Part shown: in pieces, positions 1,828-52,966 of the stretch
How the letters are laid out: each line of letters starts with the position of its first letter
Numbering within the stretch: the stretch's first letter is position 1
Assembly (NCBI RefSeq): GCF_963676685.1
Contig: NC_092346.1
Span: 25,668,001 to 25,732,000, forward strand
Direction of reading: 5' to 3'
Length of the DNA: 64,000 nt
Source: Mytilus edulis
Lineage: Eukaryota
Made by a program: the position numbers and the translations under genes
The notes under the pieces: model-generated
What the model was told of the DNA's origin: nothing
What the model saw: only the letters and a program-made list of their open reading frames with translations
Databases searched by the model: none

Positions 1828-2283
1828 TTGTAGATAAACTCATCATAGATACCAGGACTAAATTTTGTATATACGCCAGACGCGCGTTTCGTCTACAAAA
1901 GACTGATCAGTGACGCTCGAATCCAAAAAAGTTAGAAAGTCCTAAAAGTTTTGCCAAATCCAGTTGAGGTACTCTATGACTGAGGTAGAAAAGTCTTAGT
2001 ATTTCAAAAATTCGAAATTTTGTAAACAGTTAATTTATAAATATAACCATATCAATGATAATTCACGTCAGCGCAAAAAGTGCTGACTACTGGGCTGGTG
2101 ATACCCTCGGGGAAATAAAATCTCCACCAGTAGTGGCATCGACCCAGTGGTTGTAAATAAACTCATCATAGATACCAGGACTAAATTTTGTATATACGCC
2201 AGACGCGCGTTTCGTCTACAAAAGACTCATCAGTTACGCTCGAATCCAAAAAAGTTAAAAAGGCCAAATAAAGTACGAAGATT
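1828..2283 (-). mobile_element. Hammerhead-ribozyme retrozyme, partial head-to-tail dimer (period 323 nt)
   Basis: Direct repeat with two type-I hammerhead motifs at 1874-1915 and 2197-2238 (minus strand: CGTCA/CGTAA-CTGAT(C/G)A-GTC-TTTTGTA-GAC-GAAAC-GCGC-GTC-TGGCG). About 43 nt are deleted relative to the 3917-4160 copy. Confidence 0.85.
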
Positions 2284-3916
2284 GAACAGCGGTATACTAC
2301 TGCTGGCTTTATTTACCTTTAAATCTAATAAAGACAAAAACAGAAAAGCCAAAACAAAATGAAATAAACAGTTCTTCGTACGTCAAAGTTCACATGTGAA
2401 GTTAAATAAATTGTTTTGATTTTTATATGAATTGGCTGCTAAGATGATGCTTTTTTTCAGTAATGACAAGACGAATGTTATATAAAAAGATTATTTTAGA
2501 CCTTCAAATGCTTAAATATTAGTTTTATAGTAAATATGTTAACAATGCAAAAACCATGAATCCCGCTTGAGAAGTTGTTTTTACGTTCTCAATGCTGATA
2601 GTGAATGAAAAGAAAATAATATAGATGTTAATACATTTAAGACTTTACAGTTTAAAAAACAAATAAAAATTGTGTTCAACAGTAAACTTTTTTTAAAGAA
2701 ATTTATTTAGCTAAAATAGGGTAAACATTGCAATAATAAGAGGGGTTTTGTAGCCTATTTTGATCAGGTGAAGTAAACAAATGCAGTCATTTCTTATATT
2801 GTTGATTATATGAATAGAAAGGATTATGGTTATACAAGAAAAAAAGAGTTCTCTTGAATGGAAACAAGTTAAAAACAGGATGGAAAATGTAAACAAATGC
2901 AGACAATAATGTTATTATGCGGTTTTACAAAAATCAGCTAAACAATTACGAGAAAAAACCCGAATTCAACGTTCGCAAATTAACATCAGATGGAATAAAT
3001 CGAAAGAAATGCCACGATGATAAATTTCGATAACAAAATAGTGTAATTAGTATATACTTTTAATCTCTCTTATTTTAGATACAGAAAATAGGGTGCAGAT
3101 TTACCTACCTTTGTAACGATACAGAAAATTATTATACAACTTTCGGACAATATGTTGGTAAAAAACGTTTGATTTTCGCTTAAGTGAGATTGGCGAGTTG
3201 TGTTTATTTCCAAGATACTGGTGACCTATAGTTGTTAATATCTGTGTCATTTTGGTCTCTTGTGGACAGTTGTCTCATTGGCAATCATACCACATCTTCT
3301 GTTTTATATTGTTTGTGTTTATCATATAATAATGTTTATGAAATATGTTATACAATGCTTTTAAATAGGGATAGGGATTATGCTTTTGGCAAATTATGCT
3401 ATTTCCGTAGTTGTTAAATCAACTGCCAAACGTCAAAATTTGTACGCATCAAAATACAGCAGAACACCAAAATCTAATTCAATTTTTCAATTAGGAAATC
3501 GTATCATTTACTTTATTTGTAAAACGTTTCAAGCACGGGGACTACAATTATTGTCTGTACATGGTTTGTGTGAAATCTAACCTTTCATATAACTGATTTA
3601 AATATTAACTGTAGATTAACACAGATGTTGCAATAGTTCATTTATTTTATAATTATTTATCGATCTTAAATACTAGAATTAGATATAAAATCTGTTGAAA
3701 ATATTGATTGCAAGCTAGTGATTGTGTAATGCAATACACATTTAAGGTTTATTTGCTAGATTGGAAGGAAGTTTATACGGTTAAAAATTATGACGGTCAA
3801 TGTTATTGTTTTCCCTAAATTACTACCTAAATAACAAACATACCACAACTTTTTCGGTGCCTATTTCCGATGCATATAATAATCGTAAATCAACATTTTG
3901 CGTTGACATACACTCT

Positions 3917-4160
3917 TTGCAAAACTGTTTACAAAATATTGACTTTTTGAAATACTAAGGCTTTTCTACCTCAGACATAGATTACCTTAGCTGAATTTGG
4001 CAAAACTTTTAGGAATTTTGGTCCTCAATGCTCTTCAACTTCGTATTTTATTTGGCCTTTTTAACTTTTTTGGATTCGAGCGTCACTGATGAGTCTTTTG
4101 TAGACGAAACGCGCGTCTGGCGTATATACAAAATTTAGTCCTGGTATCTATGATGAGTTA
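3917..4160 (+). mobile_element. Retrozyme copy (partial monomer)
   Basis: Reverse-complement match to the 1828-2283 repeat; contains the intact hammerhead at 4081-4122. Confidence 0.85.
4081..4122 (+). ncRNA. Type-I hammerhead ribozyme, intact core
   Basis: Stem I CGUCA/UGGCG; CUGAUGA; stem II GUC-UUUUGUA-GAC; GAAA; minimal stem III C-GCGC-G; GUC triplet with predicted cleavage after C4117. Confidence 0.9.
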
Positions 4161-4309
4161 ATATGCAAAATTTGTTTTTTCTTTCGATTAAAAATTGTTC
4201 TCATTTGTTTAAAATTAAATATTTCTTCATCTGATACAAGAAATAGGAGAAAGCCTTTCTACGAAATAACAGTACACTAGAGGTATCAAATCAGTAATAC
4301 GTTATCATA

Positions 4310-4375
4310 GACGACGTAAGTCACGGATGACGGAAGATAATTCGTATAACCTTGGTATAAATGAACAGGAAGTAA
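4310..4375 (+). promoter_or_regulatory. Putative core promoter of the IFI44L-like gene
   Basis: TATAAA at 4356-4361, ETS-like ACAGGAAGT at 4365-4373 and CRE-like GACGT/TGACG half-sites, 115-180 nt upstream of the ATG. Motif matching only. Confidence 0.3.
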
Positions 4376-4488
4376 TTTGTCGTTGGATAATGTTTTGACT
4401 TAATCAAAGGATATTAAGGTAGGGAGTTGTGAAATCATAAGACAATATATTTATCGAAACAGTTCAATCACAGTTGCAGGTTATCAAA

Positions 4489-7400
4489 ATGATTGTCGAA
4501 TTTAAAAAGGAAGATCGAAGCCAAATGACAAAGTGGATTGGTGGTATGAAAAAGTACACACTTTTGTATAAGGCTTCTGGAGACGGGTGTACCTCAACAG
4601 CTTTTCATAATGCTTGTAACAATAAAGGTCCAACTGTTACGATCCTTTATAATCATGACAATTTCATATATGGTGGATACACTTCAGTCAGTTGGAGAAG
4701 TATTGGAAACTTTCAAACGGACACAAAATCTTTCCTCTTCAAACTTTATCAAAATGACACATGGTCACCGGTAAAAATGCCAATAGCTAATTATCGAAAT
4801 AGCATATATGACCATGCCGACTTCGGACCAACATTCGGTGACCGAGATTTGCAAACCTTTTCTGGCAAAGTTAACTTTGATGGTACAATTTTCAACTTGA
4901 ATGGAAAAACAAATTTTGGATCATCATACACAATGAATGACGAAAATTATAAGTCTATTGCTAATGGCAACCTGAGAGTAAAAGATATTGAAGTATATTT
5001 AGTTGAGGGTGAGTGACATTTATATGTGATAATTATTAAGGTTTTAAGATTAGCATCTATCATGACCTGAATCAATATAAAAGGTAAACAAACCAACAAA
5101 CAAACAAATTCATGAGTGATTTAGGAAATTTACGTTTAAACAATGAGTATCTATTCCTCAAAATAACTGGAAAAGAAATGCAACTTCTACCTTGACAAAG
5201 AGAGGCGAAAGATACCGAAGGTACATTCAAAATGGTAAGTCGAAAATAACTGACAACGCCTTGGCAAAAAAGAAAGAAAAGGACAAACAGACCAACAATA
5301 ATATGCATAACACAACATAGAAAACTACGGACTGATCACAGCGCACACCTCTAAAACATTGGGTGATCTCAAATGTTCCGGAATGGTAGGCATGAGGTCT
5401 CACTCCGTATGTCGTCAAATTTGCTTTTTACAAGTAAACGTCTAGCTTTTTAAGCCTGTATATAGTATTATCTTCAACATTAATGCTAAAAATGCAAAAC
5501 AGATTTTTTTTTCAATACTAAATTAGTGATAAAGCCAATGAAACTATAAACAGAATAGCAGACACAAAATAAAGTCAACTTCTGATGGATTTAAATTTAA
5601 TATCATTATTTTCCAATGATATTTGGAAATTCATTTACATACATACATCCTTGTTTTCATTTGAATCGTCGTTATCAGAATTTCTTTATTTGTTTTGATG
5701 ATATTCATGGATGGCCTTAAAAGTATATTTTATTCAAAATATTTAAAATATGTTTAGAATGCGCTTAAAAAAACCAGATGTATGCTTATAATGCAAATAA
5801 AATCGTTAATGTATCAAAAGGGGTGATAATGAAAATTGAACATTTAATAAATGGGTATAGCTGTCATTGTACTTTTAGAGGAGCCATGGAGAAAGACACC
5901 TAAATGGAACACAAAGGTAAGAACATACCGTACATTATGTAAGTTTGTCAACAACTCCATAAAAATATAAAGATCTTTAACACCAAAGAAGTGAAGATTT
6001 CGTGTATACCAGCATCCAATAGCACTACGCTATCAAATATGTTTTAATTGATGTAATAACATTTACCTCGTCTGGAATAAGTTGGTAGTTACATTCAGTG
6101 TAAATGAAGTAATTAGAATTTAAGTTTGTTTCGATGTTATGAAGTATTAGTTGAAACCTCTTTCATGATGTCAAAAGATAACCACATAGAGAACCAACTT
6201 ATTGATCTATGTTTCAACACAATTGATGGAATACCATATAATAATACTGGTATCTTCTATCATTTTTTTTTAACAGAACTGAAAACACATTATACTTCAT
6301 TATGTTAAATTGCAAAATTTGAAATTATAATCCTGGTACCTATGGTAACTATTTATTCAATATTTACCAAATATATGACTAGTGTAAACTCTACCGTTTA
6401 AGATAGTATGAACAACTGCACTCATTCGGCCAAACAGAAATACCTGTGTGCTGACGATAACTGAAAAAACACTTTTGTTTTACCTTGTCTTTTCATGTTT
6501 GCATAAGATCAGTTCCTTGAGATAAAATAGATATTTCTTTAATTTGTTTTTGTCATTGCAGCTGATGGCTGAGCTAAAGGAAAAAATAGAAAAATATAGA
6601 CCTTTGCATGGTTTAAAAATTCCTCAAGCACGGATTTTATTGGTGGGACAGGTAGGCTCAGGAAAGTCAAGTTTCTACAACACTATAAACTCAATATTCA
6701 GAGGATATATAACAAGTCAGGCTTGTAGTGGTAATGCAGAGCATAGCCTTACAACTGTGGTAAGTTTAAATGTTTAATTACTGAAGTACATGTTTTATTG
6801 TCGACTGTAATTAACGACTGCATATGTATAAAAGTGACCATGAGTATAATACGTTTTATGTGTACGATCTTACGAGGTGTAAGGGTTTTAAACAGATGGT
6901 GTTTTGTATGCTATAAAGAAACCATATCAGTTTCCTCTCCTTTATATTTGTATCGACGGTTTTGTATATTTTTAAATGAATTGATATCGCCTTATGAATA
7001 AGATTCAAGTGGTTTCACCTGCTCGGACCATACCACAGTATATTCGAGCGACAAAGCAAAAGATACCTGCTTTTGGTTACCAAAAGACATTTATTTCGTA
7101 CTAATTTTTGCCATATGTATATTGATGCACAATATAATTCAGCCTTTAAAAACTCAGCTGAACGCGGAAATATATCAGCAATGTATGGGAAACAATGTAC
7201 CTAGAAATTCTTAAAGAATAAATTCGAACTTTTATCGTAAAATGATTTACCATACTATTGGTTTTTTCTTTACTATTAAAGATTAGGTCTTTTTATCTTT
7301 TATCGCACTTTTTTGTAGAGTAGTACGACAAACGCGCGTTAATCTATATATTTCCAGTCGGCATTTAAATATATCCCTTTATCGAGTCCATTGTTTTCCC

Positions 7401-9623
7401 TTATAGTATAGAATGTATCAAATAAGAAAAGGAATAAGAGGGAAGCCAATGAATTTCCGACTTCATGACACGAGAGGAATTGAAGCTGACCAAGGAGTAG
7501 ATGCGAATGAAATTTGTTATTTGCTTGATGGAAACATACAAGATGGATACCAGGTAACAAAAATCTAATCAACTGAAACCTTATTTTTTTCACGCTGGTT
7601 CTGTGAATTGTTTTATTTTCTTTCTATTTGTTTCCTAACATGATATTGGTTATAAAAAAAAACTATATATTATAAATGATTTTCAGAATAATTGTTTGAG
7701 AAGTTTAAAAGTATAATGGAAAACGTAATACTAACTGCAGAATCTTGTGAAAATATATCTATGGGTATTTTTTAAAATTCAGTAAACGGAAAAAGAAAAA
7801 ATACCGAATTCATTGGAAAATGCAAAAATGAAAACTCTCTTATCAAATGGCAAAAATTGAAAGCTCAAACACATCTAACGAATGGATAACAACTGTCATA
7901 TTCCTGACTTGGTACAGACATTTGAGATTGCTTCTAGTATTTGCATTAAAAAATGTCACTTATATGAACCTCTCAATAGTTATTTCCAAACACAAGCTTA
8001 AGAGACAAAAAGCCAACAAAATCTTTAATTTTTGGATACCCGTTCTATATTTTAATTGCTACATTTTTAATGATTAAAAGATGCAATCAGATTAACAGCA
8101 TCAATTCTAACAGATGCGAATTCTCTACAATACGACGCTCGGCGCCAAATATATGAAATCCTAAAGCGATGAATAAGAACCGATAATATTAAAAAGGCCA
8201 TAAGTGTGGGCAAATATATGATAACGATTTGGATTTTTTATATTTCAAAACTTCAAACTACATTGTACAGCCTTTCCTTCCTAATTTGATGTCTATATTT
8301 CTATTTTCCTTGAAATTGAACTTTTTTAATTGGTCATTTCATTTTCATTAGAATAAAACTTTGAACAATAAGTGATAACCTTATTCAGAAAAGCAATGCC
8401 TAATGATAGAAAAAATATAATATTGGACGGGAAATTGAACATTATTTTTTGGGCCTAAAATTCCTTCGCCACATTCCAAATGGAAAGATATAACTGAATA
8501 TTTTAAAATTTGTCGTATCTTTAGCTGATATTAGTTCGACTCTATTTTGAAAGAAACCTAGAAACAAATCCAGTGAATTCAATCTCATATTATGATTATT
8601 TACATTCTGTTTTGTAGTTCAATCCATCGGTCCCAGTTTCAACGGACACGCTAGGATTTGTAGATAGCGCACACGTCAGTGAAACAATTCATTGTGTGGT
8701 GCTTGTTTTAGATGGCACCACCGTTGACGTTATGGCAGAAAAGGTCGCCGAAAGGTTAAAAAAGTTACAGATGCGCATGAACCAACGAGGTATGACAGTA
8801 AAGAACTTTAATTGCTTTTATTATTTTATAAAATATTTCAACATTCATAAAAAAGATCACATTTGAATTATCATATATGAAAAACAACTTAAATTTATCG
8901 TTGAGTGGTTTGTTGTTTCGGTTTAATAACACCACGCCAATGCATTCTACTAAATTTTTCTGAAAACGACAAAGTATGAAATGAATTTAGAAAAACTAAA
9001 ATAATGATAATGGCCTTCTTTTTTTTTTTTTTTTTTAGATTTTATAAACATAAAACTAGGCAGCATCTCAGACAATATCATTGTCATATTTTTTTTCGGA
9101 AACTCGATAGAAAATTTCCATACATAATAAAATTAACTTTGAAAAATACTTATATGACTTTTGCATCGGAAACACAAACATATGAAAGCATGTGCAATCA
9201 ATCATTCTGATTCAACGATTTCAGCAACTCTTTCTGATATACATTGTAGGTATTCCGCAAGTAGTTTTGCTAACAAAGATAGACAAGATTTGTGAGAGAA
9301 CAGAGGAAGATTTATCAAATGTGTTTTACAGTCCTTTGGTCAAGGAAACAGTCGAAAGAGTTTCACAGATAATGGGATTGCCCAGGTCACATATCTTACC
9401 AGTAAAAAATTATGAATCAGAAATGGATCTTAATGATAATGTGAACATCCTGGCTTTAATGTCCCTGCAGCAAATATTACACTTTGCAGATGACTACATG
9501 TATAACCATCTTGATAAACATAAAGAGGGCATTAGTTTCAGCTTTCATGGGATGTTTCGCAACATCATAATTATTATCATGTCAGCTGTTGTTTGTTTGT
9601 TGGCATTTTGGTTTTATAAGTGA
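4489..9623 (+). CDS. IFI44L: Interferon-induced protein 44-like (N-terminal TLDc domain + P-loop NTPase domain), 6 coding exons, ~482 aa
   Basis: Exons 4489-5008, 5879-5916, 6562-6759, 7407-7553, 8618-8789 and 9250-9623, all GT-AG and in frame (1449 nt). TLDc motifs LLYKASGDG, FHNACNNKGPT, YGGYTSVSW, FGPTFG, DIEVY; Walker A GQVGSGKSS; DTRG; IHCVVLVLDG; LLTKID; ILPVKNYE. Confidence 0.9.
5196..5420 (-). repeat. Short copy of the 3' end of the Naiad-like Penelope element (other copies at ~318-492, ~1497-1660, ~29690-29850)
   Basis: gaggcgaaagataccgaaggtaca...actgacaacgcc...ggacaaacagac...acacaacatagaaaacta matches 49773-49960. Confidence 0.65.
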
Positions 9624-15281: not shown

Positions 15282-18200
15282 ATGGGGTGGTGTTCAGAAG
15301 ATTTGTTTCCTACAAAATTCAGTTTGATCATATTTATTTCGTATATGGCACTGTTTATAAATCAAGGTAAGTGATGACATGACAAGACAGCCATATCCAT
15401 GAGAACATAAACAAAAACTTTCGTTAGGGTCTAGATGTCTACATCTACATCTACATGGGTAATCCGCAATGAGTCGGTTGACTCATCACACGAATGTATT
15501 AAAATTAAAGTTGTGTCATCCAAAATGTGCTCTTTTAAAATCATACGTACAGGTGCCAGTGCAGACAAAAACGTGTGTGCTGATTTACGGACATCTGTGT
15601 GCTATGAGGTTGGTTTTGAATGCCTCATAGTCATCAATGTCCAATAAGCTAGGCGGTAGTTCATTCCAGTTTGTGATGGTTCTAACGAAGAAGCTATGTT
15701 TTCTTTGTTCAGAACTTGATCCTAATCTGACAAATCGTTGTTGATGGAACTGACGTGTCATTCTTGCTGGTGTCATCAAGTATTCTGGCACTGTGCCCTG
15801 TGGTACACCAGATTTTACATTTACAGATGATGATTCATCGCCGTCTACTAGTACTTTCTGCTGTCTAGTTGTTAACCAAGACTTCAGCCATCCGTGGATG
15901 TCTCCTCTGACTCCATAGTGGTCTAGTTTATGGAGGAGTCTGATGTGGGGTATGGTGTCAAAGGCTTTACTGAAGTCAAGTATCAATAAGTCAGTTTGTT
16001 GTTTGGAATCTAAATACCTGCTTATTTCTTCAACTGTAATAATAAGCTGTGTTTCACATGATCTCTTTTGCCGAAATCCATGTTGGAAGTCTGCAAGGAT
16101 CTTATAACATTCTAAGTGTTCCATGATGTGTTTAAAGATTATGTGCTCCATTACTTTACACGGTACTGATGTAAGCGATACCGGTCTATAATTTACTGGT
16201 TTTGATCTATCTCCTTTCTTGAAAAGTGCTGTTATGTTTGTAGCATAATGATAAAGGTAATAAGAGACAGGTTTAAACTGTAATATAGCCTGTATATTTA
16301 TACCTGTTGAAATACGTGTACTGATTTATGCAAAATTAAAACAACAGTAAGATGATTTTGAATTTTATTACTGAGCCAAGGCCACAGTTTGTTTATATTT
16401 TGTAAAAAATATGACTTTTAATACAATACAAATCACTTATTGCAAATCTTTGTACAGATACTGAAACTCTAACTAATTGATCTGAGGCGAGTTTCCCTAG
16501 AGAACTCATAATTTTTGTTTTCTATCAGTATCAGAAAGTATCACAATTTGAATAAGCAGTTGACAAATTTCATTAAGTTCACAAACAGGATAAAGTAAAA
16601 ATGTTCGACCTGGTTAAGTTTCTTTTTCGATGATCAGGCCACGATTAAAAATATTTGGGTTTGCCCAAACCCTACCCAAAGGTTGAGACAGTGGGTAGGT
16701 ACAATGTAGGTAGGCATTTTCTGTTTTTTTTCAAAAAGAGAAATTGAAGTATCAGGTGTTTATTAGTCTTCTTGCCTATCTGATTAAAAAAAACTTCTTC
16801 AAATCAGGAAAATAAAAGAATTTGAGTAGGCTTTTTTTTTTCTGGGTAGGTAGTGTTTGGACAAACAAACCTATTTTTTTTATGGCCTCATAGATATGTT
16901 ATAAGGGGACGAAGTGCCCTATAACAGTAAAAAAAAAAAAAAAAATTCTAATGTATTTATATTATGAACTAAAAAATCATTAACTTTTTTTTCTAACATT
17001 TTTTAGTTTCCCGCTTTAGCACAGTAATAATCTCTTTTGTTCTTCCAGTCTCGTTTGTCATGAAATTTTGAGTATAATACATTTATCAGTCTAGTAATTA
17101 ATTTAGTAATACCTGTACAATGTATATAGGAATGTGCACAATAACTTTCATTTCGATTATTCTTTGATATGAAAAAAAAACGTTACCTGATGATAGCGTG
17201 TCTTTATTTACATTGAAAACGACAATATGACTAATATTAAACGTTACAGTCATGACAGTATTTCTGTTTCTTTTTAAACATTAAAATATGTTAGAATTAA
17301 ATAAAGGTAATTGATACGGACTTCGTCCCCTTTCACAGGTCACTCCCGCCTCATACATGTATATTGTATTACGAATATATGATTTCCCACATGTTCAACA
17401 TGGCATACATGTACATTTGTTTTATTTAAGTAATCTTTTATTATCATCATGATCATGAATATATTCATATTTCATGATCATATATAAAATAACACATGTA
17501 CAGCTACACTTGAAAAACAATTTGGATTTCTAATTAAGTCCAGAACAATTTTTTGATTTGCTAGCCCTTAGAAACTGAATCCTTTTTAACATATTTAAAC
17601 CCTATTTAACTCTGTTCTGGAAAATATCACCAATGTCACCTCAAACCTACAACATCATTCTATATAGGTACCAATATATTTGACGCAGGTTCAAGGCGGT
17701 GTATTTTGTAAAAACGAAATTCTTCAATAGAGTTAATAGGGCTAGCTTGAGGGTGACCAAATCAGAAAATGACCCTTGACTTGTAATTATCAACACTAAC
17801 ATTTTGGATTCTAATTAAGGATAATGATCATGAAGGTAAATTGTTATTGGTTATTATTATTATAGTGTGGTAAATGTATGTGTTCAATCATTCATTCATA
17901 TATGTCCTGGTAATATATATTTTAATACTGGAAGAGTAATGGATTTTAAATTTTGATGGAAAAGGTCTTAAAAGTCATTGAAGAATTATAAACATTGTAA
18001 TATAGTTTTAAGTCCATTGTAAGTGTTGGAAAATAATTTGATATGATTGTGAAGAGACTTCACATGTCACTTAGTGACTTACATGTAAATGGGTTGTTTT
18101 AACAACAATCATGACAATGAAAGAATTATTGTTTCTAAGACAGTACATTGTACTTCACAATCATTTTTACTGATAGAAAATCGATTGTGAAAAGGGCACT

Positions 18201-21200: not shown

Positions 21201-24060
21201 TTCAAGAATTGGACAAACATTATTTTTCACCACTCACTCACTCGTTTCATATGACTTTAAGTTCTGCAGAATAGAGACAAAAAGTTCAATTATTACAATT
21301 TAATGAAACATAACAGGTAAAATTTAAAATTTTGTATCACAAAAGTGTTATCAATTGTCGTTAAGGACGCAATGACGTCACGTCATTTGGAATCAGGGCA
21401 CAATAACCAATAACCTCTTTTTTGCCCCAGGCATTTTTGAGGTTATTGCATATGCAAAACCCAACGTATTTGTAACAAATATGTGGTAAGGAATTCTTAT
21501 CTACTGTTTGTATATCGTCTACAACACAAAATGTATATAATTATAGGTACATGTAGGGCAATATGCAGTACATTACATATACAGTGTTATAGATATAAGA
21601 AGATGTGGTATGAGTGCCAATGAGACAATTCTCCTTCTAAGTCACAATTTATAAAAGTAAACCATTATAGGTTAAGGTATGGTCTTCAGCAAGTAGCCTA
21701 GGCTCACACCGAACAGCAAGATATAAAGGACCCCAAAAATTACTAGTGTAAAACCATTCAAATGGGAAAACCAACGGTCTCATCTATTTAAAAAACAAGA
21801 AACACTTATGAACCAGATAAACAGACGACAACCACTGACTTAGGATAGGTACAGTGTATGCATGAAAGTCTAAACAAATAACAAAAACCTGAAAAACAGC
21901 TGACTCTATAACAGAAAGTTTGTAAAAACTCAAATAAAATTTTCAGAAACAACACACTAAGTGAACAGATTTCAGTTCTTTAACAACCATGTTTGTGGAG
22001 TAAAATTGAAACATTTAATAATAATTGAGGAAAATTATGAAAATGGACTCATTAGTTTGGTACAACAGGTTTATCATTTACAGCCATGCAGGATTTTCAA
22101 TTATTACCTTCATTTAGTGACTGAATTTGGGAGAGTTGCATGCTATCTTTGTGAAATAAAACCCTTCTTGATACATCTTTTTGAGATTAGTAGTAGATAA
22201 CCTGTTGGCAGACTTTTAAGTCTTGTCCATATTCAACATACATGTATCAATATTTCCAAACATTTGCTTGACATGTATTTCATACTATCATGACTATTCT
22301 TAGCCTCTGCTAAACTTATAAACTTGATTATTTCTCATCATGGTGAATATGCATGAAGTTTTAGCCATTGGAACTTTAAAAAATCTTTTGGCGTGTCACA
22401 TCATTATTTATTACTATTTATTTTATTAGGGGATACAATAAGCACGATGTGCCCAAGTCAGTATTTAAGAAGAAATTGCTTCTAAAAGCTTGCAAAGCAT
22501 TTTATAAATTTTAGGTTTAACTGTGTGAAGAAATTAACACAATACATGCGTTTAAATTATTTTAATCTTAAGAGAAGCATTTTCTTCCTTTTAATAATTA
22601 ACGCATATGTACAAAAAAGTGACTCACAGTTTATATCAACTGTGTATTATTATTTTTTTTCAGTGTTACTGTATTACATGGTACCATCAGCATTATATTG
22701 TTTATACAATAACCTGGCTTTCGTAAACCTGGCATCATATGATCCAACTACATACTTCCTATTATTACAGTTCAGAGTTGTATTGACTGGTGTGATATTC
22801 CAGGTGAGTTCTTGTTTTTTAACAGGAAGAAAAACTACAAATACAGTTCACTCAAGATAAATATGTAGAAATATGAAGATGTGATATATTTAATAATGAG
22901 ACCAAATTATGTGGAATAAGGAAACTATAGGTTAATCTACCACCTTAAAAAAAATAGCAAAACCTATATCACACAGCAAGCTTAAAAATGCTCCAAAATG
23001 ACAAATGAAAAAATATTTTAAAATAGAAAGTAATGGCTTAATTTATGAAAAGAAACCAATTAACAAATATGGCATTCAGCAACTAACAACAGCCACTGAA
23101 ATACAGGCTCCTTTAGATGCTAATTTCAAAAGTTAAAAATCTCTTTATACAACATATATTTCTTGGAATTGTTAGGCAACTAAGGTCCAAATCGTTCTGT
23201 CAAAGTTGACCTGGAATGGATTGGGCTATTTTAAGGTCCCTTATCGTTGTATACCTCCGAAAAATCCGAAAAGAGCTTCAGACAAACCAAACTTTGAACT
23301 GTTACTTTCATCATTTAACAAAAATTCCAAGTATTTCAAAATATTATGAGTAAAAACATGACTGGTAAATCCATGGTGGTTACTGATATTATAATTTTCC
23401 ATATCTAGTAACATTTTAAATTGTTCTTTTCAGATTGTTTTCAATAAGAAATTGACAACACTTCAGTGGGTATCATTAGGATGCCTTACATTTGGATGTA
23501 TCTTGAAAGAGTATGGTAAAATGTCAGAAAAAACAAGTGCCACATCATCAGATTTCATGTCCTACCTTGATCCTCACCTGTTTCTGATCATTGTCCAGGT
23601 GTTTAGCTCATGTTTTGCAGGTGTGTACAATGAGTACCTGTTGAAAGACAAAGGTGTCGACGTCCATATAATGGTACAGAATGTATTCATGTATTTAGAT
23701 TCTATCTTATGTAACGTCATAGCTCTGGGATTTAAAGGAGATTTGGCCAATGCCTTCACATTTACGAGTCTCAGCGCTATGGCCCAACCAAGCGTGATAT
23801 GTATAGTTCTGAACAATGCCGCTATTGGCATTGTCACTAGTTTATTCCTGCGATCGCTGAATTCCATTTTGAAGACATTTGCCAGTGCTTTAGAACTGAT
23901 GTTTACTGCAGTTTTGTGCTGGATGATTTTTGGTATATCTATAGACATGTACACAGTAGTGGCACTTGGAATTGTAACTGCAGCCACTTTCCTGTATTCT
24001 CACAAACCTGTTGTCAACCTGGCCAAGACAGATGAACACAAAACAAAAGAAGATGTCTAA
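15282..24060 (+). CDS. senju: Nucleotide-sugar transporter of the SLC35A family, senju (UDP-galactose transporter)-like, 5 coding exons, 338 aa
   Basis: Exons 15282-15366 (MGWCSEDLFPTKFSLIIFISYMALFINQG), 19004-19121 (ILVTASKSKDNTYNYNTVTAVLLTECVKL), 20482-20528, 22664-22803 (YMVPSALYCLYNNLAFVNLASYDPTTYFLLLQFRVV) and 23434-24060 (SCFAGVYNEYLLK...NNAAIGIVTSLFLRSLNSILKTFASALE). All GT-AG, 1017 nt in frame. Confidence 0.9.
15431..16240 (-). mobile_element. 5'-truncated, internally deleted non-LTR retrotransposon (CR1/L2/Jockey-group LINE) in intron 1 of the transporter
   Basis: RT motifs ALFKKGDRSKPVNYRPVSLTSVPCKVME, QHGFR, LDFSKAFD and GVPQG, fused directly to the C-terminal HSFFVRTITNWNELP; 3' tail of (ATGTAG)n. 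Confidence 0.85.
16636..16888. mobile_element. MITE-like element with imperfect terminal inverted repeats
   Basis: aggccacgattaaaaatatttgggtttgcccaaaccctaccca versus tgggtaggtagtgtttggacaaacaaacctattttttttatggcct. Confidence 0.55.
21595..21850 (-). repeat. Abundant interspersed repeat (other copies at ~20185-20420, ~31790-32215, ~3222-3310, 46694-46768)
   Basis: Shared aagatgtggtatgagtgccaatgagacaa-tctcc...gtaaaccattata...ggctcacaccgaacagcaag...actagtgtaaaaccatt...gggaaaacc blocks. Confidence 0.7.
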
Positions 24061-34702: not shown

Positions 34703-34802
34703 GAAATAAAGACATTTAAACAATAATTTGGCAATCACTTGAGGTTTATTTATAAAATGAAAACAGAAATAACATACTAAATTAGAATATATTGGATCCG
34801 AG

Positions 34803-34844
34803 CGTTACTGATGAGTCTTTTTTAGACGAAACGCGCGTCTGGCG
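34803..34844 (+). ncRNA. Type-I hammerhead ribozyme, intact core, in a retrozyme fragment (34794-34887)
   Basis: CGUUA-CUGAUGA-GUC-UUUUUUA-GAC-GAAAC-GCGC-GUC-UGGCG. Confidence 0.85.
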
Positions 34845-36354
34845 TATTTACAAAGTTTAGTCCTGGAATCTATGATGAGTTTATTTGTACAGTGTAACCT
34901 GTGTAATCCGACATACACTAGGGGATTAGAAAAAATGTCGGATTAAGCAGGATGTCGGAATACTCAGGTTTTGTCTTCAAGGATAGGGATAATTTGGAAC
35001 AATGAAAATGTGTCGGTTAAAGCAGGATGTTAGAATACTTAGGTGTCGGATTAAGAAGTTAACACTGAGAGTTATAGAGATATATATTCTTATATGAATT
35101 TACGTTATTTATATTAAAATGATGGTAACACATAGAGGTGTGCTGTCCATTAAAGGGTCCAGAGTAACAATAAATGGGTTATATTATAAACTTTGTTTGT
35201 AAGAAATTACTCATTTTATTTATTTTCATACTAGATGTTAATCAATCAAATAAAAACTGACCAGGTTATACTATTTTTTATATAATTTTGAATTATGTTT
35301 GAAAAATATATGTAATAATATATTTTTTTACTATTTTGCACATTTTAAATGCCGTGATTGCCACCTAAACATTTGTCTGTTTATGATACTTGAAGTAAAA
35401 CCTTGATATCACAGACTTTCAATATAAGTTAAATCATGAGTAAATCGGTCAAGACATTTAAACCTGTGCACTCTTGTTGAATTATATTTTGAAAATATCT
35501 CTCTCTCTCTCTCTTTAATTTATAGTCCAAATGTTGAAAATAAGGCAAGCATTTTTTATATTGAGGACACAATTTTATTATGTTTATACTTTGAACGTAG
35601 TATTCCCACTATAGTTTTAAATGTCATGCCATTTAATGTATATATATATCTGACAACATGGGTTGGTTAGCAACATAAATTGCTGGCATCTACGAAGAAT
35701 GTAACCTCGAAATATTGCCGATCATCGATTGCTTTTTTTCAAACTGAACTTTTATGAATGGGATTGAATGCATTTGGCGAAATGAATAGGTGTGTTTTCG
35801 GTTCTTCCAGATCCTATTTTGCCGAAAATAGTGGGCACCCGCAAATGTCGACCAAATAACAAAAGTAGTAAGACCAAGAACGAAGTTGTAAGGACGGTAA
35901 AAGCCTAATATTCCGAATAATGTACCAAATACGACAATCAAGTCCTTGGTGTAGAAATAGGCCAAGTTATTTCCATGATTTGTTTAACATTAAACTACAA
36001 AACTATAATTTCATATCACAGGTAACAGCAGGTCCCAAAGAGACAGAACAACCAGGTATGCTATGAAATCGTTTCATATTAATACTGCACATATCGGGAA
36101 GGAGCTGTCTAAGTCTAATCAATGTCAAGTACTTGAGGTAAATGAAAGCAAAGAACAGTATAAGGTGCTATTTTTTCATCATCATCTTCTTCTTCTGTTT
36201 CTTCCTTTTTACTGTTATGATAGTTCATTAAAGTGCTGGTAACAGCATAATGTACCTGTACGCCTTATTTTGATGCTGTACACAATTTTTGATAACATAA
36301 AATCTAAATAAAAAAATCCAGGAACAACAAAAAGCAACAAAAGATTAGTTACGT

Positions 36355-39300
36355 TTAGACTTGACTATTTAATTTTCTGTGCATAGTAACTGTTTTATCG
36401 GTAGTCGATTCTTTGATATATTGTATACTAATTGAAGAATCAGTTGCGTATCTTTTCCTCCGTACAATAATGATAAATACTATTCCATTGAGAACACCAC
36501 CCAAATTTGAGAAAGTTGTCACAAAATGGAACAAAGTTTGTGGAACATCCGTTACCCACTGCCATATACCGTACGTTGCCATGGCCCACCACTGTACTAG
36601 GAAAGCAAAAACAAATAAAGACATGGTTTTAGCCGCTCTATGCGAAGCGATCAAAGATTTTCGCGATATTTTAATAGCTTTCGTTTCCCGATAAATACGA
36701 AACCAGCTAATGATGTAAAGAAGTATGTTGGTAATTGTAATGGCAGAAAGTAGAATAGTTGTATATATGAAGTTGGCTATCTGTCCTTTAACACCATCAA
36801 AGAAGCAACTGAAACCAAAAAAAAATAAAAATCATTCATTAAAGGAGTCAATGATTAAAGTACCGTATAGTGGGTTATTTTTATAACAATAAATAAGGTA
36901 TACGACAAATTTTGACGTTTAATATTTTGGCGGATTCAAAACTTTAATCAGTACCTTTGCATTTGCACTTTTAAAATGGAGGAATTTATTTTTTGCGATT
37001 TTGTTCTATCCGCGAAAATAAAAGAAATTTATAATCCGCGAAAATAATACGCTATACGGTAATTTGATACATTTTTTACAATAAGGATTCCGAAGATACC
37101 TTTTTATGCAGTAGGAAGAACATGTTAATTGCGTCGTCTGATATTTCAATTACCGAACGTGACTTACTCCCGATAGTACCTGTTGTGCTGAGTGTGAATT
37201 CGCATTGCTATAAGACGTGTCACGGTACTTTTCTATCCCAAATTCATGTATTTAGTTTTGATGTTATATTTGTTATTCTCATCAGTTTTTGTCAATGTCT
37301 TAACGTTTTTTATACTTACTTATAGTTGATTTCCAGTACAGGATCCCTCAAGGTTCCTCTTCACCAGATTTATGTAAATCAATATTTTTTTTTGTATTTG
37401 TATGTTATGGTAAAGATAATCAATAAGTTCATTTATTAGATTTTAGCAATTTATACGATATTTGGTTTACAGTTTGATTCAGAAGAAACACCTACATAGC
37501 TAGATAATGCAATTAATTATATAATTACTACAACAATTTGATATTAATTAGTATTATAGTTTTCATTGTTATTAATAAATGTTATATCAGTCTTACAAAT
37601 CTAATCTTAAATTCCATCCTAATTCTATCTTATTTTTGGAAAAATCTTTTTAGAAATTCAAATGTGACGTCACGTTGTGCGTTCATGGCTTTGGCTAACT
37701 CGGCTGTGTATTTTTATGTGCTGGTTTATGTTGTTTCATGAAATGTGTCCATTTTTCTTCTGTAATTAGTCACCACTTCGGTTTTATCATGTATATCTAT
37801 TATATAGTCATTTTATAAAATTGACTGTTTGCAAAAGTAGGAATTATTCTAAATAAAAAGTATGTTCTTATCTCAGGCAGAAAGCCCTAGCCGTATTGAT
37901 CACAACTTTTTGAAACTTTTGGTCCTCAGTGCTCTACAACTTTGTACTTGTTTTGGCTTTCGATTTTTTTTCATCTGAGCGTCACTGATTTGTCTTTTGT
38001 GGACGGAACGTACGTCTGGCGTATTAAATTTTAAACCTGGTACCTTTTGTTAGGTATTATTTATGTGTTTCTCTGTCCTATATGTTCTCCAATTTATTTG
38101 TATTGTAGTCCTGTCATGTAATGTTGTCATTTTAATGTTATGTTTAACATTGCCATACAAACGGGAGAATTGGCATGCCACAAAACCAGGTTAAACCCAT
38201 CATGTTTTGCTTGAAATAGCCTGTACCAAGTGTACAAAATGACCATTATTATATTATAGTTCGTTTATGTGTGTGTTACATTTTAATGTTGTGTTCTGTT
38301 GTGTCATAGTTCTCATCTTATATTTTGATGCGTTTCCCTCAGTTTTAGTTTGTAACCCGGATTTATTTATTTTTTTCTCAATAGATTTATGAATTTCGAA
38401 CAGCGGTATTCTACTGTTGCCTTTATTTTATTGCCGCATATCTTTATTTTCTGAATTATTTCGTTATACCTTGAATGATGTTCTAACATCCCCCACTGCA
38501 ACGTTTGTCTCTGAACTACATTTGTACAACTAATGGTATTTGTTTTGGTAATCCAAATTATCACAGACGTTTGTTTCTAGATAAAAATAAGGATATAGGG
38601 TATGATTGCCAATAAGACAACCATCCACCAAATTTCAAATGAATTTTGTATAAAGAATCATAGGCAACCGTACGGCCGTCTAGTTCTTTTAGTCTCCAGC
38701 TTACACAATTCACGAAAGAGGAAATGAAGATTTTTTAAAACCCGTCCTTTGTCCTTGTGTATCAGTACAATAAAAGACTATCAAAACATCTACTTCATAT
38801 TAAAAACCTTGAAATAGAACGACATATGGTGGGATCATTTGAATATTAGACTAACAGCTCATTTGAATTGCTATTACCATTTTCCCCACAATCGAATATT
38901 GCCGATAATATTGTGTTAAGAGCAAGGTAAACTCAACAAGCAGCGTCATTCTTCGCTTTTATATTCCTGGTGTCATATTCAAAATAAACAGGTGTAAATT
39001 CCCATTAATAGTTATCAAAGGTACCAGGGTTATAATTTATCACACCAGACGCGTGTTTCGTCTCCATTAAACAATACCATTTCTACAAGAATTGAAATGA
39101 AAGATATAAATGTCCTGTCTATATTCTCGATAAATCACCCTCATCTAAAATTTCTCTAGGTTTTGTATGGAAATGGATTAACGATATTTTTGACATCGCT
39201 AAAATAACTTCTTAATTACGTTCTTTAATATTAGTATTCAACAGTCTGTATGAGAAGTTTGTTTAGACAACATTTGTTTTGCCATCATCACCTAGTTGAA

Positions 39301-39933
39301 AATGAAAGTAAAGTGTTTATCAAGTATGTCGCCTTGTTTGATGCTTTTTATAGAAAATCTATTACATTTTTGTACTTACAAACTGCCATTTGGACCTAAC
39401 TGTCCTAAGCCAGCTGTTACTGTTAGTCCTAAGGCAGGAGCCCCAAAAATGAATCCAAGAAGTCGATAATCCTTGCATCCAAAGTCAAGTTTCTTCCGAA
39501 AATAAACTAAAACAAAAACATTAATTGCAACGATGCTGACCAATAAATTCTGAGCTGTGACAAATTCCGCAAGCAGAAATCCATAGAAAGCACACAGATG
39601 TTTTGGTGTTGGTAGTTCCTTTGTAAGAACTATATGCAGATGGTCAGAAAAATGGGAAATATTAAAAAGTCCATCACATATGGCAATATAAACGGCAAAT
39701 CGTTCGCATTTTGTCCACTTAAAGAATGTAGATATGTGCTGATGGTAAAACGAATAAGTTATAACAGATATAACACATGTAAAGCTGAAACATATACAAA
39801 TAAGTGCTGGTACATGGATGCTGTAAAAGGTACCATTAGCTAGCCCATATACAGGTAAATCATAACCATCCTTTAGCTCCGTTGTTGTTGCTGTGGTTAC
39901 ACCATTGATTGTACTAGATGAAATGTTCATCAT
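36355..39933 (-). CDS. Seven-transmembrane receptor (cAMP-receptor/GPR157/Git3-like GPCR), paralogue A, 2 exons, 335 aa
   Basis: Exon 1 39933-39380 and exon 2 36808-36355 (phase-2 GT-AG intron, 1008 nt in frame). Seven hydrophobic segments, N-terminal NxS/T sites, Cys at the top of TM3 and in ECL2 (GSFCFFD), AAKTMSLFVFAFLVQWW, SNLGGVLNGIVF. The subfamily call is tentative. Confidence 0.8.
36861..37061. mobile_element. Tc1/pogo-type MITE in the GPCR-A intron
   Basis: TACCGTATAG...CTATACGGTA termini with TA ends; internal tccgcgaaaata repeats. Confidence 0.7.
37650..38055 (+). mobile_element. Diverged retrozyme subfamily copy with a degenerate hammerhead (37980-38021)
   Basis: Colinear with 3917-4160 (ttttggtcctca.tgctct.caact...gagcgtcactgat...gtctggcgta...cctggta); core mutated to CTGATTT and GGAA. 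Confidence 0.7.
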
Positions 39934-42150
39934 AGATATTTATTTTATCTTCTACTTAAAAATATTTAAACAACATCAGCTACTTGCTGTGAAACTATAA
40001 TGAATATGCTTTTGTAATTTTTTTTCTAGATCACTTCTAGACAGGTTGACGACTTCTTGACGTTGTTCCTGGTTTATTGATGACATTTATGTGATTGTTC
40101 TTTTGTTCAGTTTCTACCACTTTAATGTTGTCCTTTTAAATATTAAGTAACTATTATAAATTCTTTTGAACTAAATCATTTGTAGGTGTTTTGAAAAACT
40201 AAATTTATGCAAAAAACGGACGATATCTGTAATCTGTAACTTTATGACATGCTGAAATTTTACCTAAAACCATCATATGACCTTCAATAACTTTTTGTAA
40301 ATTATCGTTTAAAGAAGAAATATTTTAAATACGGAAATTTTACATTACATTTTAAATAAAAATTTACTTTCTGATGAAATCGTTTGAAAGAATGTATGAT
40401 TTATAGTATGACGTGCTTATTATATTTGATACAGCTATGATTTTCAATCTTAAGTATTCAGTTTCATACTTTACTATATTAGACCTCAGCCATTTTCCTG
40501 TTCTGAACCTCTTTATTTAGCCTTTGTGACACTTTGACAATATATGAGAGTATGCAGAGGAAGTGATGGAAATTAATAACACACATATCAAAATATAACC
40601 TTTATCATTAAAACATATTTAATAAACGTTAAATAGTATAAATCGATTACATAATTTTCTATATATTTAATAGTACATTACTAGACGAGTAACATTTTTC
40701 AAAAAGACGCCTAGTTTACGACTTTAATGCACCCACCTAACAAACGGCTATAGTATGTATCATTCGAAAGCTTATTACCTGTACTTTCTGTTTTGCAAGG
40801 TCGTTATTAGTCGTATGTTGCAATTTTCAAGGTCAAAGGTTAAAATTGAACAATTTTGTCTGGTAAATTTTACCAGAATTAAGCAAAATGCCATTTTCTG
40901 TTACTTGTATGGATTTTTTTTTCTAAAAATGATCTAGACCTTATAAAACAAATCACCACAATTCCAAATCAAATGCAAACTTAGTGTTGATTGAGCTCTA
41001 TTCACAGAAAATTGCAATTCTTAAATAAACTTCCAAAAAACATAAAATTGCAAAAAAATCTAAATATTTTTTGAAGTTTGAATATTTGTATGTCAAAAAT
41101 AGAATATATGTATCGTTTATAGGCCGAGGGATTTTTTTCATCATTTTAAAACGGCAACTTATATGATATAGGTCAAAATGCAGCCTTCTAATGAAGCGTT
41201 TGCAGTTGCCCTAAAATACACCATCTGCAAATATTGATCATTTTGCTTTTTTGGCTAGATATTATTGCCAATATCGGCAGATAATGATCATCCATATTTG
41301 AACAAAAAGGTAATGGATGAACTTTAATGAACAAAAAAAGTATATTTAGTAAAAAAATGTTTTCCGATGTTGAAAGACATGAATCGAAGTTAATTTTCGT
41401 TCAATGTTCGAATGAACACTATTTGTACCATTCCCTTTTCAATATCAAATCCGGCGAATTCCTTTTAATATTACACCATTATCATATACTTTATCAGTCG
41501 ATTTATTAAATATGTCTGAAACTTAATAATTCAAATTAATTAAGATTTAAAACCCTTGCTGAGCAACTGTTATCACCATACTGGTTTATGTAGTGTTCGC
41601 AAATATCGGTAGAGTATTGTAAGAAGTTTTGTTTGTCTGTACTAATTTGTCTTTGTCATGCTGTCATTTGTTTTTCTTTGACGATGGTTTAAGACTGCCT
41701 CCTTGTTATTTCATTTCTTCTTTCAAACAAAGAAAAGAAAACCATAAGGTTCAAAGTTCAAAAACAACAGATCTAAAAATATACAAATTAAGTGAGAAAA
41801 TCACTAAAAGTCGCTGTCAGATTAACAAATGAGGGCTCAATACATAATAAATATCCACAAACATAATTTAATTTTAAATGACATAAAACCAATTAAAAAA
41901 CTAGATAAATAAAGGCAACAGTAGTATACCGCTGTTCAAAAGTTATAACTCGATTTAAAGAAAACGAATCCGGGTTACAGACTAATACCGAGGGAAACAC
42001 GACAATTATAAGAGGATTACAACGAAACAAAAGAAACACCGAAGTCGTCAAAAGAAACAAACGACAATGCAATATAAATAGAAACGAACTATTAGATATC
42101 AACTGCCAAGGGATAAATTCAACCACAATTTTCATTTTTCCCAATTATAT

Positions 42151-49772: not shown

Positions 49773-51538
49773 AAAAGAGGAACGAAAGATACCAGAGGGA
49801 CAGTCAAACTCATAAATCGAAATAAACTGACAACGCCATGAGTAAATATGAAAAGGACAAACAGACAAACAATGGTACACATGACACAACATAGAAAACT
49901 AAAGAATCAACAACACGAACCACACTAAAAACTAAGGGTGATCTTAGGTGCTCCGGAAGGGTAAGCAGATCCTGCTCCACATGTGGCACCCGTCGTGTTG
50001 CTAATGTGATTAAAAATCCGGTAAATAGTCTAATTCGGTAGGTAACATTTATGAAAGGGAAGGGGATTGTAGTTATGACGTAAGGAACACATCCGATATC
50101 TTTTGTGAAACGGTTATTCCATAACCGTCAACCAACTCGTGATGGCGTCCTTAAAATTTACGAAGAGATGATTGCAACTTAATAATTTGGAACTCTTGAT
50201 TTTATAGCTTCCTTGTTAGCAACAACCCTCTATCAAGAAAATCATGATAGGAAATGCAAGCACGGGAATATCGTATCAATTGGGAGATATATTCACCCTA
50301 TTCAGGTGCTGCTGGAATATTGCTACTTAGAAATGGAAAGTTCACAATTGGAAAGCTGAAATCATCTCTTTTGTCGTACAGTTTTGTTTTCAATCGAACC
50401 TCATTGTCAATTTCTAGATGTAAGTCAAGATATGAGGCCGACTTAACTGTATCTGTTGTATCCTTTATCTCTACTTCAATGGGACAGATACGATCGACAT
50501 AGTCACCAAATATTGAATTGTTTAGTGAAAGAACATCATCTATATAGCGGAAAGTAGAGTTAAAGGATATTGCTAACTTTTTGTCTTTCTTCCTCTTGTC
50601 TTTCTTCCTAAGAAGTTCCTATATGAAGTCAGCCTCATAATGATAAAGAAACAAGTCAGCAAGAAGAGGGGCATAATTCGTTCCCATTGGAATGCCGATA
50701 GTCTGTTGTAAAACACGTCCTCCGAACGTAACAAATATGTTGTCAATCAAGAAATCAAGCATCTTGATAATGTCAGTTTCACAGAATTTTTGTTTGAATC
50801 AGAGTGATCCTTTACAAAGTAAGATTTATCCTTTCCCAAGACAAGATACTTGTACCTTCGTCGGCCATTCTTTTTGATGAAACAAAGCAATACCAACTCT
50901 TTCAATTTGTCTTTTAATTTGGAATGTGGAATACTTGTATAAAGTTTAGAAAAGTCAAATGTGTTAATACTATTACAAAATGAACTCATCATAGATACCA
51001 GGACTAAATTTTGTATATACGCCAGACGCACGTTTCGTCTACAAAAGACTCACCAGTTACGTTCGAATCCAAAAAAGTCAAAAAGGCCAAATAAAGTACG
51101 AAGTTGAAGAGCATTGAGGACCAACGAGAGTTAGATTGCATATACTCTAAAAGATCTTTGGAATCTTTAAGTATTCACATCTGATTCACGCCACCTCTAG
51201 AATAGGCATTTTCACAAGAACTTTGAAGCCCGTCTGTGATTGCTGACAAAATATATGTTAATAATTTAGAAAAAGGTTTCGTGGAGCACTTGGAAGACCC
51301 AGCAATATACCTTTGTTTGTAAGGACACTTATGCAGTTTTGGTATCCAATACAGTGATGGAAGATCCAGTTCATTATCTTTTGTTGAAATTCCAAAGGAA
51401 CATAGAACAGACCTATGATTATCCAGGATTTCCTCTTTGGTAAGTGTCGTGAGGGTATATGTTGGGTTTCCAAGTGAATTGTCAATACCCAATTCGTTTA
51501 TCAAGCAGTTAATGTAATGGGTTTTACACACAAACACG
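49773..51538 (-). mobile_element. 5'-truncated, decayed Penelope-like retroelement, Naiad-type RT with structured 3' end
   Basis: LPSLYWIPKLHKCPYKQRYIAGSSKCSTKP, TFDFSKLYTSIPH, GIPMGTNYAPLLADLFL, FRYIDDVLSLNN, SASYLDL across stops and frameshifts; no endonuclease 3' of the RT. The clade call rests on motif recall. Confidence 0.8.
50982..51124 (-). mobile_element. Retrozyme fragment inserted in the PLE RT ORF; hammerhead at 51020-51061 with a CUGGUGA mutation
   Basis: Near-identical to 2160-2285; interrupts ...EYMQSNS | CNSINTFDFS. Confidence 0.85.
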
Positions 51539-52416
51539 CTACTATTAATATCTGTTCTTACAGATCCCTATGTCCACACAAAATAGTATTCAAAAGACAG
51601 AATATGCAAAAATGCTGACTTCCTGTAAAATTAGAAGTTGTCTGTCCTTGACTTTTCGTAGTGATTTAACAGAAACTGCACCGTTCGAATTTTTGACGAC
51701 CGGGCAAAAACGATAGTACAGATGTTGTGCTTTCGAATGGTATATGATTTCGCCGTATGTTAGGTAGGTGCATTAAAAATAGAATTTCATGGATAATGTC
51801 ACTCATCTATAGTACAGAGATCTGATACTAAGGTAAACTTTGTAACCTGTACATTGTGTTTAGATTAATGTAAGAATAATATCCCGGTCAGTTGACTTAT
51901 GAATGTTATAGTTATCGTATTCAGATTATGATATGGAATTGGTTATGATATAGAATTCAAGTAAACGGTTCCATGCATGAACCATATACCACATATACGG
52001 TAAGGAGTGTGTACATGTTTTAGTTTGTGCTTGTCTTGTTCAGTTTGTAACTGTATAGTGTTATAGTATTATATGTAATTTTACCTGAAACTGCATGGAA
52101 TTACATTTATATGAATATGTCGTAACACTAACTTTGAGATTGCTAGTGATTTATATTACTTTATAGCACATGATTATGAGACGTTATGAGTGAATTTAAA
52201 TTTAAATATAAGATTGTGAAGTAATTGCATTGGAATATATTTGATTTATTCCCCTTTGTCTATAATTCTGTTTTATGTTGTCATGTGTTGTTTATGATTG
52301 TTATATATGTTGTAGGGTTTAATAATATTTGCAATCAGTGTGAATAAAATCCCTTAAGAACCCTATCTAGTCTATTGTACTTATTGAGCCTTTTGGACCT
52401 GCTATATTTTGATAGG

Positions 52417-52966
52417 TTTAACACGTTCTGATATGTGTGTCATTTACTCTCACTGTTTGTGTCACTTTATTTTAACACGTTCTGGTGTGTGTGTCATTTA
52501 CTTTCAATGTTTGTGTCACTGTATTTTTAACACGTTCTGGTGTGTGTGTCATTTACTTTCACTGTTTGTGTTTCTGTATTTTAACACGTTCAAGTGTGTG
52601 TGTCATTTACTTTCACTGTTTGTGTAACTTCATTTGAACACGTTCTGGTGTGTATGTCATTTACTTTCACTGTGTGTGTCACTGTATTTTAACACGTTCT
52701 GGTGTGTGTGTCATTTACTTTCACTGTTTCTGTCACTGTATTTTAACACGTTCTGCTGTGTGTGTCATTTACTTTCACTGTGTGTGTCACTGTATTTTAA
52801 CACGTTCTGGTGTGTGTGTCATTTACTTTCACTGTTTGTGTCACTGTATTTTAACACGTTCTGGTGTGTGTGTGATTTACTTTCACTGTTTGTGTCACTG
52901 TATTTTAACACCTTCTGGTGTGTGTGTGATTTACTTTTACTGTTTATGTCACTTTATTTTAACACT
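52417..52966. repeat. 54-bp minisatellite, ~10 copies
   Basis: Unit ttttaacacgttctggtgtgtgtgtcatttactttcactgtttgtgtcactgta. Confidence 0.95.

Follow-up and report, generated by a model that had tools for sequence, protein, structure and literature searches.

The closest described relative of the repeat analysed here is the retrozyme of Mytilus galloprovincialis, a low-GC family of 350-390-bp tandem repeats that carries a type-I hammerhead, falls into two hammerhead subfamilies, has neither LTR nor coding frame and is present in thousands of copies (PMC7229834). Its RNA self-cleaves at ~0.1/min, is ligated by RtcB in vitro and forms abundant circles. In the main text of that study the candidate helpers are PLEs or LINEs, and no fixed 3' end, shared hairpin or Naiad link is mentioned. 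Which reverse transcriptase copies the circles of animal retrozymes, and how it is primed, is a question stated both there and in a 2026 preprint on Xenopus retrozymes (bioRxiv 10.64898/2026.07.22.740005). The Xenopus retrozymes are similar in having sequence in common with PLE ends and in the proposed use of PLE machinery. In its available text, however, the preprint has a vertebrate focus with no mollusc among the classes named, reports homology to pLTRs and Naiads in coral only, ascribes tandems to local amplification and describes no start site, cis-signal or hybrid junctions.

Two PLE systems are also relevant. The Naiad clade (Craig et al. 2021, PMC8557442) is described as autonomous and without canonical hammerheads, whereas the retrozyme is a non-autonomous hammerhead repeat, but both show partial tandems, 5' truncation, inverted 5'-adjacent copies and AT-rich targets. 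PLEs frequently have, at their 5' end, a copy that is inverted and truncated (PMC8557442). The anole PLE Poseidon PAc (Frangieh et al. 2024, PMC11167929) initiates internally, and the region that its protein presumably binds covers the start sites and the sequence after them. In vitro, uncut RNA is its main substrate and priming does not occur by homology. PAc resembles the process proposed here for the mussel family in its fixed internal starts, which correspond to genomic 3' ends, and in its AT-rich (ATT) cleavage; it differs in that its two start sites lie in an AC-rich stem-loop of the ORF, that it bears its own hammerhead and that it needs no homology to the target. In the literature searched, no paper connected mussel retrozymes with Naiads, with a common hairpin or with a fixed start site, although supplements and Repbase entries may contain part of this; the supplements of PMC4918200 in text form gave no Mytilus match.

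We analysed a stretch of 64,000 nucleotides of Mytilus edulis (NC_092346.1, positions 25,668,001 to 25,732,000), referred to as the window, and found the following features of the retrozyme family and of two PLE families, denoted Naiad-A and Naiad-B.

1828..2290, minus strand: 5'-truncated 1.3-mer retrozyme copy of subfamily 1 (the locus), starting at about monomer nt 277-286 and ending 45-51 nt beyond the second cleavage site
2196..2239, minus strand: upstream type-I hammerhead, core intact, helix-I mismatch at 2235, predicted cut after GUC at 2202/2201
1873..1916, minus strand: downstream type-I hammerhead, core G8C at 1905, nominal cut at 1879/1878
1879..2201, minus strand: 323-nt monomer, the span between both GUC cleavage sites
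1939..1940, minus strand: junction of a private 42-nt deletion, from alignment to other copies
2087..2151, minus strand: hairpin common to Naiad PLE 5' starts, from similarity, fold and pair counts
1828..1878, minus strand: tail running from the cleavage site as far as the fixed 3' end of the family, the true end lying within 1834-1828
2282..2312, plus strand: inverted 31-nt Naiad-B 3' tip, abutting the retrozyme 5' end head-to-head
3923..4168, plus strand: independent sub-monomer retrozyme copy, hammerhead intact, 3' end as in the locus, from sequence alignment
49773..51546, minus strand: decayed, 5'-truncated Naiad-A copy, 91-93% to the intact family
50978..51124, minus strand: retrozyme copy inside the Naiad-A reading frame, from empty-site comparison

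An earlier note on this DNA had described two type-I hammerheads 323 nt apart on the minus strand and proposed a check against Rfam. Both were matched by Hammerhead_1 (RF00163), at 2239-2196 (28.0 bits, E 0.01) and 1916-1873 (27.5 bits, E 0.016), and the GUC-to-GUC span has the stated length. These scores fall below the gathering score of 34, as does that of the intact hammerhead at 4080-4123 (32.5 bits). Stem III consists of 2 bp plus GCGC within the palindrome ACGCGCGU. Dimeric folding through this GCGC, as suggested in the note, is possible but not required, a single-repeat mussel construct having self-cleaved at ~0.1/min (PMC7229834). The locus is not a full head-to-tail dimer but a copy of ~460 nt made of a partial 5' unit, one monomer and a 45-51-nt tail, with no LTR and no open frame of 100 aa. 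Compared with the column majority of 33 other monomers, its monomer carries 11 substitutions, 1 insertion and the deletion. The deletion had been noticed before by comparison with the other copy nearby; it is real, but removes 42 nt rather than 43, and that copy lies at 3923-4168 rather than 3917-4160. The predicted monomer of ~365 nt agrees with the 33 other natural monomers (355-371 nt, 17 of them exactly 364 nt), and 323 plus 42 gives 365 instead of 364 because the locus holds one extra base.

The two point lesions reported earlier are both present: the downstream core reads CUGAUCA (G8C, position 1905), and helix I of the upstream hammerhead has an A-G mismatch adjoining the core. Because of these changes and the private deletion, the locus is probably crippled, as the note had supposed, and we predict that it is very probably unable to release a monomer efficiently. 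Self-cleavage at the G8C site is predicted to fail; the same change abolishes cleavage in another PLE hammerhead (PMC11167929). Minimum-energy folds of intact and damaged copies alike lacked the catalytic hammerhead fold, so folding energy was not used for judging activity. The deletion-junction pattern occurred once in the genome, at the locus itself, with up to 2 mismatches allowed. The 323-nt form thus left no progeny and was ruled out as a spreading subfamily. Damage of this kind sets the locus apart from the published M. galloprovincialis retrozyme. Nor is the locus notable for preserving the circle sequence, since many undeleted arrays exist in the genome; taken alone, the repeat is decayed and ordinary.

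The locus is a damaged member of the known mussel retrozyme family. Its identification as a non-LTR retrozyme fits the published M. galloprovincialis family in size, subfamilies, low GC and copy scale (PMC7229834), the likeness being one of description rather than of aligned clone sequences. The intact 43-nt hammerhead has 2,145 exact copies in the 1.37-Gb genome and its reversed control none, so that the repeats cannot be due to chance. Units of 355-371 nt form arrays of 2-5, and the best matches are spread across many contigs. The family is transcribed: in all four RNA runs from two studies, possibly from a sister species, 2,849-5,406 reads per 7-13 million fell on the intact monomer, most of them fitting the second subfamily. 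Assuming the standard library orientation, reads in three runs favoured the strand that carries the hammerhead. The reads showed no pile-up of ends at the cleavage site. Junction-spanning reads, which the earlier note had called for, do exist, 28-53 per run wrapping from the unit end to the unit start, but they are expected of circles and tandems alike and cannot tell a circle from a tandem transcript. The RNA reads therefore show family expression only, neither circularity nor expression of the locus. No indexed sequencing run containing the retrozyme sequence was recorded as RNA. Elsewhere in the window, truncated copies of subfamily 1 (34792-34886, plus strand) and subfamily 2 (63152-63272, minus strand) each end at the fixed site of their subfamily. 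A diverged variant with the hairpin and an altered hammerhead forms a tandem with a 674-bp unit at L140-L142 (G000:C1:8897746-8902154).

To describe the ends of the copies, we used 88 loci from the first 100 listed of the 2,145 hammerhead sites, with overlapping ones and the last few omitted. The 3' ends are fixed: 78 of the 88 loci end +39..+55 past the cleavage site, compared with ~5% expected if ends were uniform over 364 nt, although three loci of the sample (L159, L160, and L163) have identical ends and may be one duplicated event. The 5' ends are scattered round the whole unit (5/8/12/14/23/18/8 over seven 52-nt bins), the median copy is 228 nt and 24 loci are longer than one monomer. 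Identity to the expected continuation drops to background 2-4 nt before the hairpin in the retrozyme (83 distinct ends), in Naiad-A (26) and in Naiad-B (30, selected by a motif that extends to the T-tract). Naiad and retrozyme copies share one end register, just before the hairpin.

Crossing of the cleavage site is built into this sample, which was selected for an intact hammerhead, and copies stopping at the site were counted separately. Four of 30 examined (47 candidates) stop there, a fifth flagged by the script being excluded because it keeps 14 nt of the hammerhead, and 2 of 30 (91 candidates) stop at a control site at +8. This corresponds to an estimated ~6 copies each at the cleavage site and the control, against 2,145 exact read-through hammerheads. 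As 5' ends are not in excess at the cleavage site, a cleaved linear monomer was ruled out as the main template, and the template probably reads through the site as either a ligated circle or an uncut multimer. For the copy at 50978-51124, the empty site could be derived from 28 of 29 Naiad-A loci. At this single empty site there was no target-site duplication; the target sequence is similar to the T-rich stretch that the retrozyme itself has at +41..+47. Short flank matches of 6-13 nt in the 88-locus scan had no control and were left uninterpreted; one of 13 nt at L170 may be a real target-site duplication.

The hairpin at which these ends converge is shared with two autonomous PLE families. 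Naiad-A has intact 1000-aa frames in 3,370-bp tandem units, and Naiad-B has a 1007-aa frame in a 4,555-bp unit, slightly above the Naiad range of 3.4-4.4 kb; their proteins are 63% identical. Both have an N-terminal GIY-YIG and the CxC and DKA motifs, as read from the sequence, and are assigned to the Naiads by the criteria of PMC8557442. By eye, both also resemble the published Naiad_Mgal. No hammerhead core motif was found in Naiad-A by a simple pattern search, and Naiad-B has no canonical hammerhead. Naiad-A is a young family: of 150 scored matches, 53 show 100% identity over 156 aa, many of them in open frames of 1000 aa. The PLE fragments of the window were not recognised by Pfam. The long 3' UTR of Naiad-B holds a decayed retrozyme piece of 220-244 nt with a dead hammerhead and 70-71% identity (L330:8500-8750, plus strand; window 37657-38426, plus strand), so this autonomous element captured retrozyme sequence. 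The exact 32-nt Naiad-B 3' tip occurs 6,137 times in the genome.

All that the retrozyme has in common with Naiad-A is the 5' hairpin of 63-65 nt and the end register. The hairpin of the locus, intact despite the other lesions, is 82% identical to Naiad-A over 71 nt (E 4e-15), and the Naiad-A segment is 82-86% identical to both retrozyme subfamilies over 70-71 nt. In Naiad-A the hairpin lies at the tandem junction, directly after the 3' T-tract; of 30 loci, 21 carry it after their own 3' end and the remaining 9 are 5'-truncated. A diverged hairpin with the same fold was present in all four full-length Naiad-B copies, and the Naiad_Mgal consensus opens, by eye, with the same hairpin plus an inserted stem-loop. 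The stability z of the hairpin is -3.1 to -3.9, and when three monomers are folded as circles its outer stem forms with a probability close to 1. Across 10 sequences, hand-picked and related, its 23 pairs are 96% paired and 8 are changed on both sides. The covariation score was reached by none of 500 shuffles, a figure that is not a probability because the structure was derived from the same 10 related sequences; slid controls gave 38-51%.

The window also contains a decayed canonical PLE (55470-57500, minus strand; reverse transcriptase, then GIY-YIG). Near 55510-55476 it has a minimal hammerhead-like motif in which the first core base, judged by eye, seems altered. This hammerhead-type PLE and the retrozyme gave no match over 14 nt, and the canonical PLE at 54.3-58.2 kb was ruled out as a partner since the two have no sequence in common. 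Adjoining it at 54477-55451 are inverted and 441-bp-spaced repeats with a tRNA-like segment, in which ARAGORN found no tRNA. Other features of the window include a LINE reverse-transcriptase fragment (15585-16325, minus strand), nucleotide-sugar transporter exons (22486-24060, plus strand), a 54-bp minisatellite (52308-53064) and duplicated membrane-receptor-like exons ~17.6 and 19.3 kb apart (36355-36831, 39376-39939, 53987-54496, and 58693-59268, minus strand). A multi-exon gene at 4441-9620 (plus strand) includes exons for TLDc and, near 6526-6775, a P-loop; its last exon is IFI44L-like, with an atlas lead at 0.91. The locus lies antisense to this gene, ~2.2 kb upstream of its first coding exon. 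The retrozyme copies at 1828-2290 and 3923-4168 are mutually inverted and could pair if co-transcribed.

The earlier note had proposed that a PLE reverse transcriptase copies the retrozyme. Our results support this and point to the Naiad clade, through three features that the note had overlooked: a 3' end that is fixed, the hairpin shared with Naiads and, at 2282-2312, the inverted Naiad tip. The hairpin is predicted to be where the reverse transcriptase binds and is positioned, and it is quite likely that Naiad protein binds it. Naiad-A and Naiad-B were the helper candidates surveyed, and the helper may belong to either of them or to another Naiad family. In the proposed mechanism, a Naiad reverse transcriptase would bind the hairpin on the retrozyme RNA, would prime on nicked DNA of AT-rich sequence, at an internal site of the RNA a few bases before the hairpin, and would then roll round the RNA circle. 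The fixed end just before a Naiad-shared hairpin, together with the head-to-head Naiad join, suggests that Naiad enzymes copy the circles. The locus was likely inserted in this way, by a Naiad-clade PLE reverse transcriptase using the shared hairpin and copying an RNA circle.

At the 5' end of the locus, the retrozyme and the inverted Naiad-B tip overlap by 9 nt, of which 8 fit both. Both 3' ends point outward and neither element resumes on the far side. At L332, a 479-nt retrozyme copy is joined to 3.2 kb of Naiad-A through 6 untemplated bases, again with both 3' tips outward; this young head-to-head hybrid (L332:4108-7797, G000:C8:68153500-68162500) includes a near-full-length Naiad-A with a 979-aa open frame. 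A further hand-checked hybrid, L261, has the same outward orientation. Such hybrids are rare: an inverted Naiad tip was found in none of the 88 sampled copies and an inverted retrozyme tip in 2. Only hand-checked cases were used because at some loci the junction scan counted Naiad hairpins as retrozyme. Three candidates (L283, L295, and L156) were dismissed as nested insertions, and four (L132, L090, L138, and L270) were ambiguous. The retrozyme and Naiad are also each found inserted in the other class. Unlike the inverted copies of the Naiads in PMC8557442, the 5' neighbour of the locus stems from a different RNA.

Twin priming is an established non-LTR mechanism. By analogy, a circle and a Naiad RNA would each have been primed at one end of a single break and then fused, and on balance we favour such an origin of the locus from retrozyme and Naiad-B RNA. 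No empty allele or paralogue of the locus was found in the genome, so two separate insertions are a possible alternative. The first 290 nt of its right flank are unique in the genome.

The same Naiad helper and start would also fit a template consisting of linear uncleaved multimers transcribed from long arrays, with circles as stable by-products. The anole PLE favours this reading, and weakens one based on microhomology, because it used uncut RNA as its dominant substrate in vitro, with cleavage dispensable, and was primed without homology (PMC11167929). The slow cleavage of the mussel hammerhead (~0.1/min, PMC7229834), arrays of 5 units and the tandems formed by the Naiads themselves, in which no canonical hammerhead was found, are also in its favour. 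However, circles are the dominant form in mussel tissue (PMC7229834), long arrays are a minority given the median copy of 228 nt, and the persistence of 2,145 exact hammerheads suggests that templates underwent cleavage and ligation. We therefore lean towards a ligated circle rather than an uncut multimer as the template and consider the multimer reading as a whole unlikely.

The hairpin could instead be a relic of descent from a Naiad end, with the copies moved by a canonical hammerhead-bearing PLE or spread by local unequal crossover. Cervera and de la Pena favoured PLEs on account of shared hammerheads (PMC7229834), the Xenopus preprint derives retrozymes from pLTRs with local tandem amplification (10.64898/2026.07.22.740005), and a canonical PLE fragment is present in the window. 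This is improbable, as dispersed copies have one 3' end in the Naiad register, which crossover does not predict, pairing is preserved via compensatory changes, the canonical PLE and the retrozyme lack common sequence and retrozyme-Naiad hybrids occur. A function of the locus itself, either as a source of a 323-nt circle or in regulating the IFI44L-like gene, would accord with its intact hairpin, its position upstream of the first coding exon and the inverted copy with which it could pair, but is made highly improbable by the G8C core, the helix-I mismatch and the deletion unique in the genome. For the family, we give slightly better than even chances to the reading that mussel retrozymes captured the Naiad 5' hairpin as a landing pad, are copied from a fixed start by rolling-circle reverse transcription and form hybrids with Naiads in single events.

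For the question of which enzyme copies animal retrozyme circles, the anatomy of this family points to a hammerhead-less clade and names a short structured signal and a start site. The intact young Naiad frames make the helper hypothesis directly testable in vitro. A small RNA element for internal rolling-circle reverse transcription would be useful as an RNA-templated integration tool. If the hypothesis is true, it would name both the enzyme and a portable 65-nt signal that makes any circular RNA integrable.
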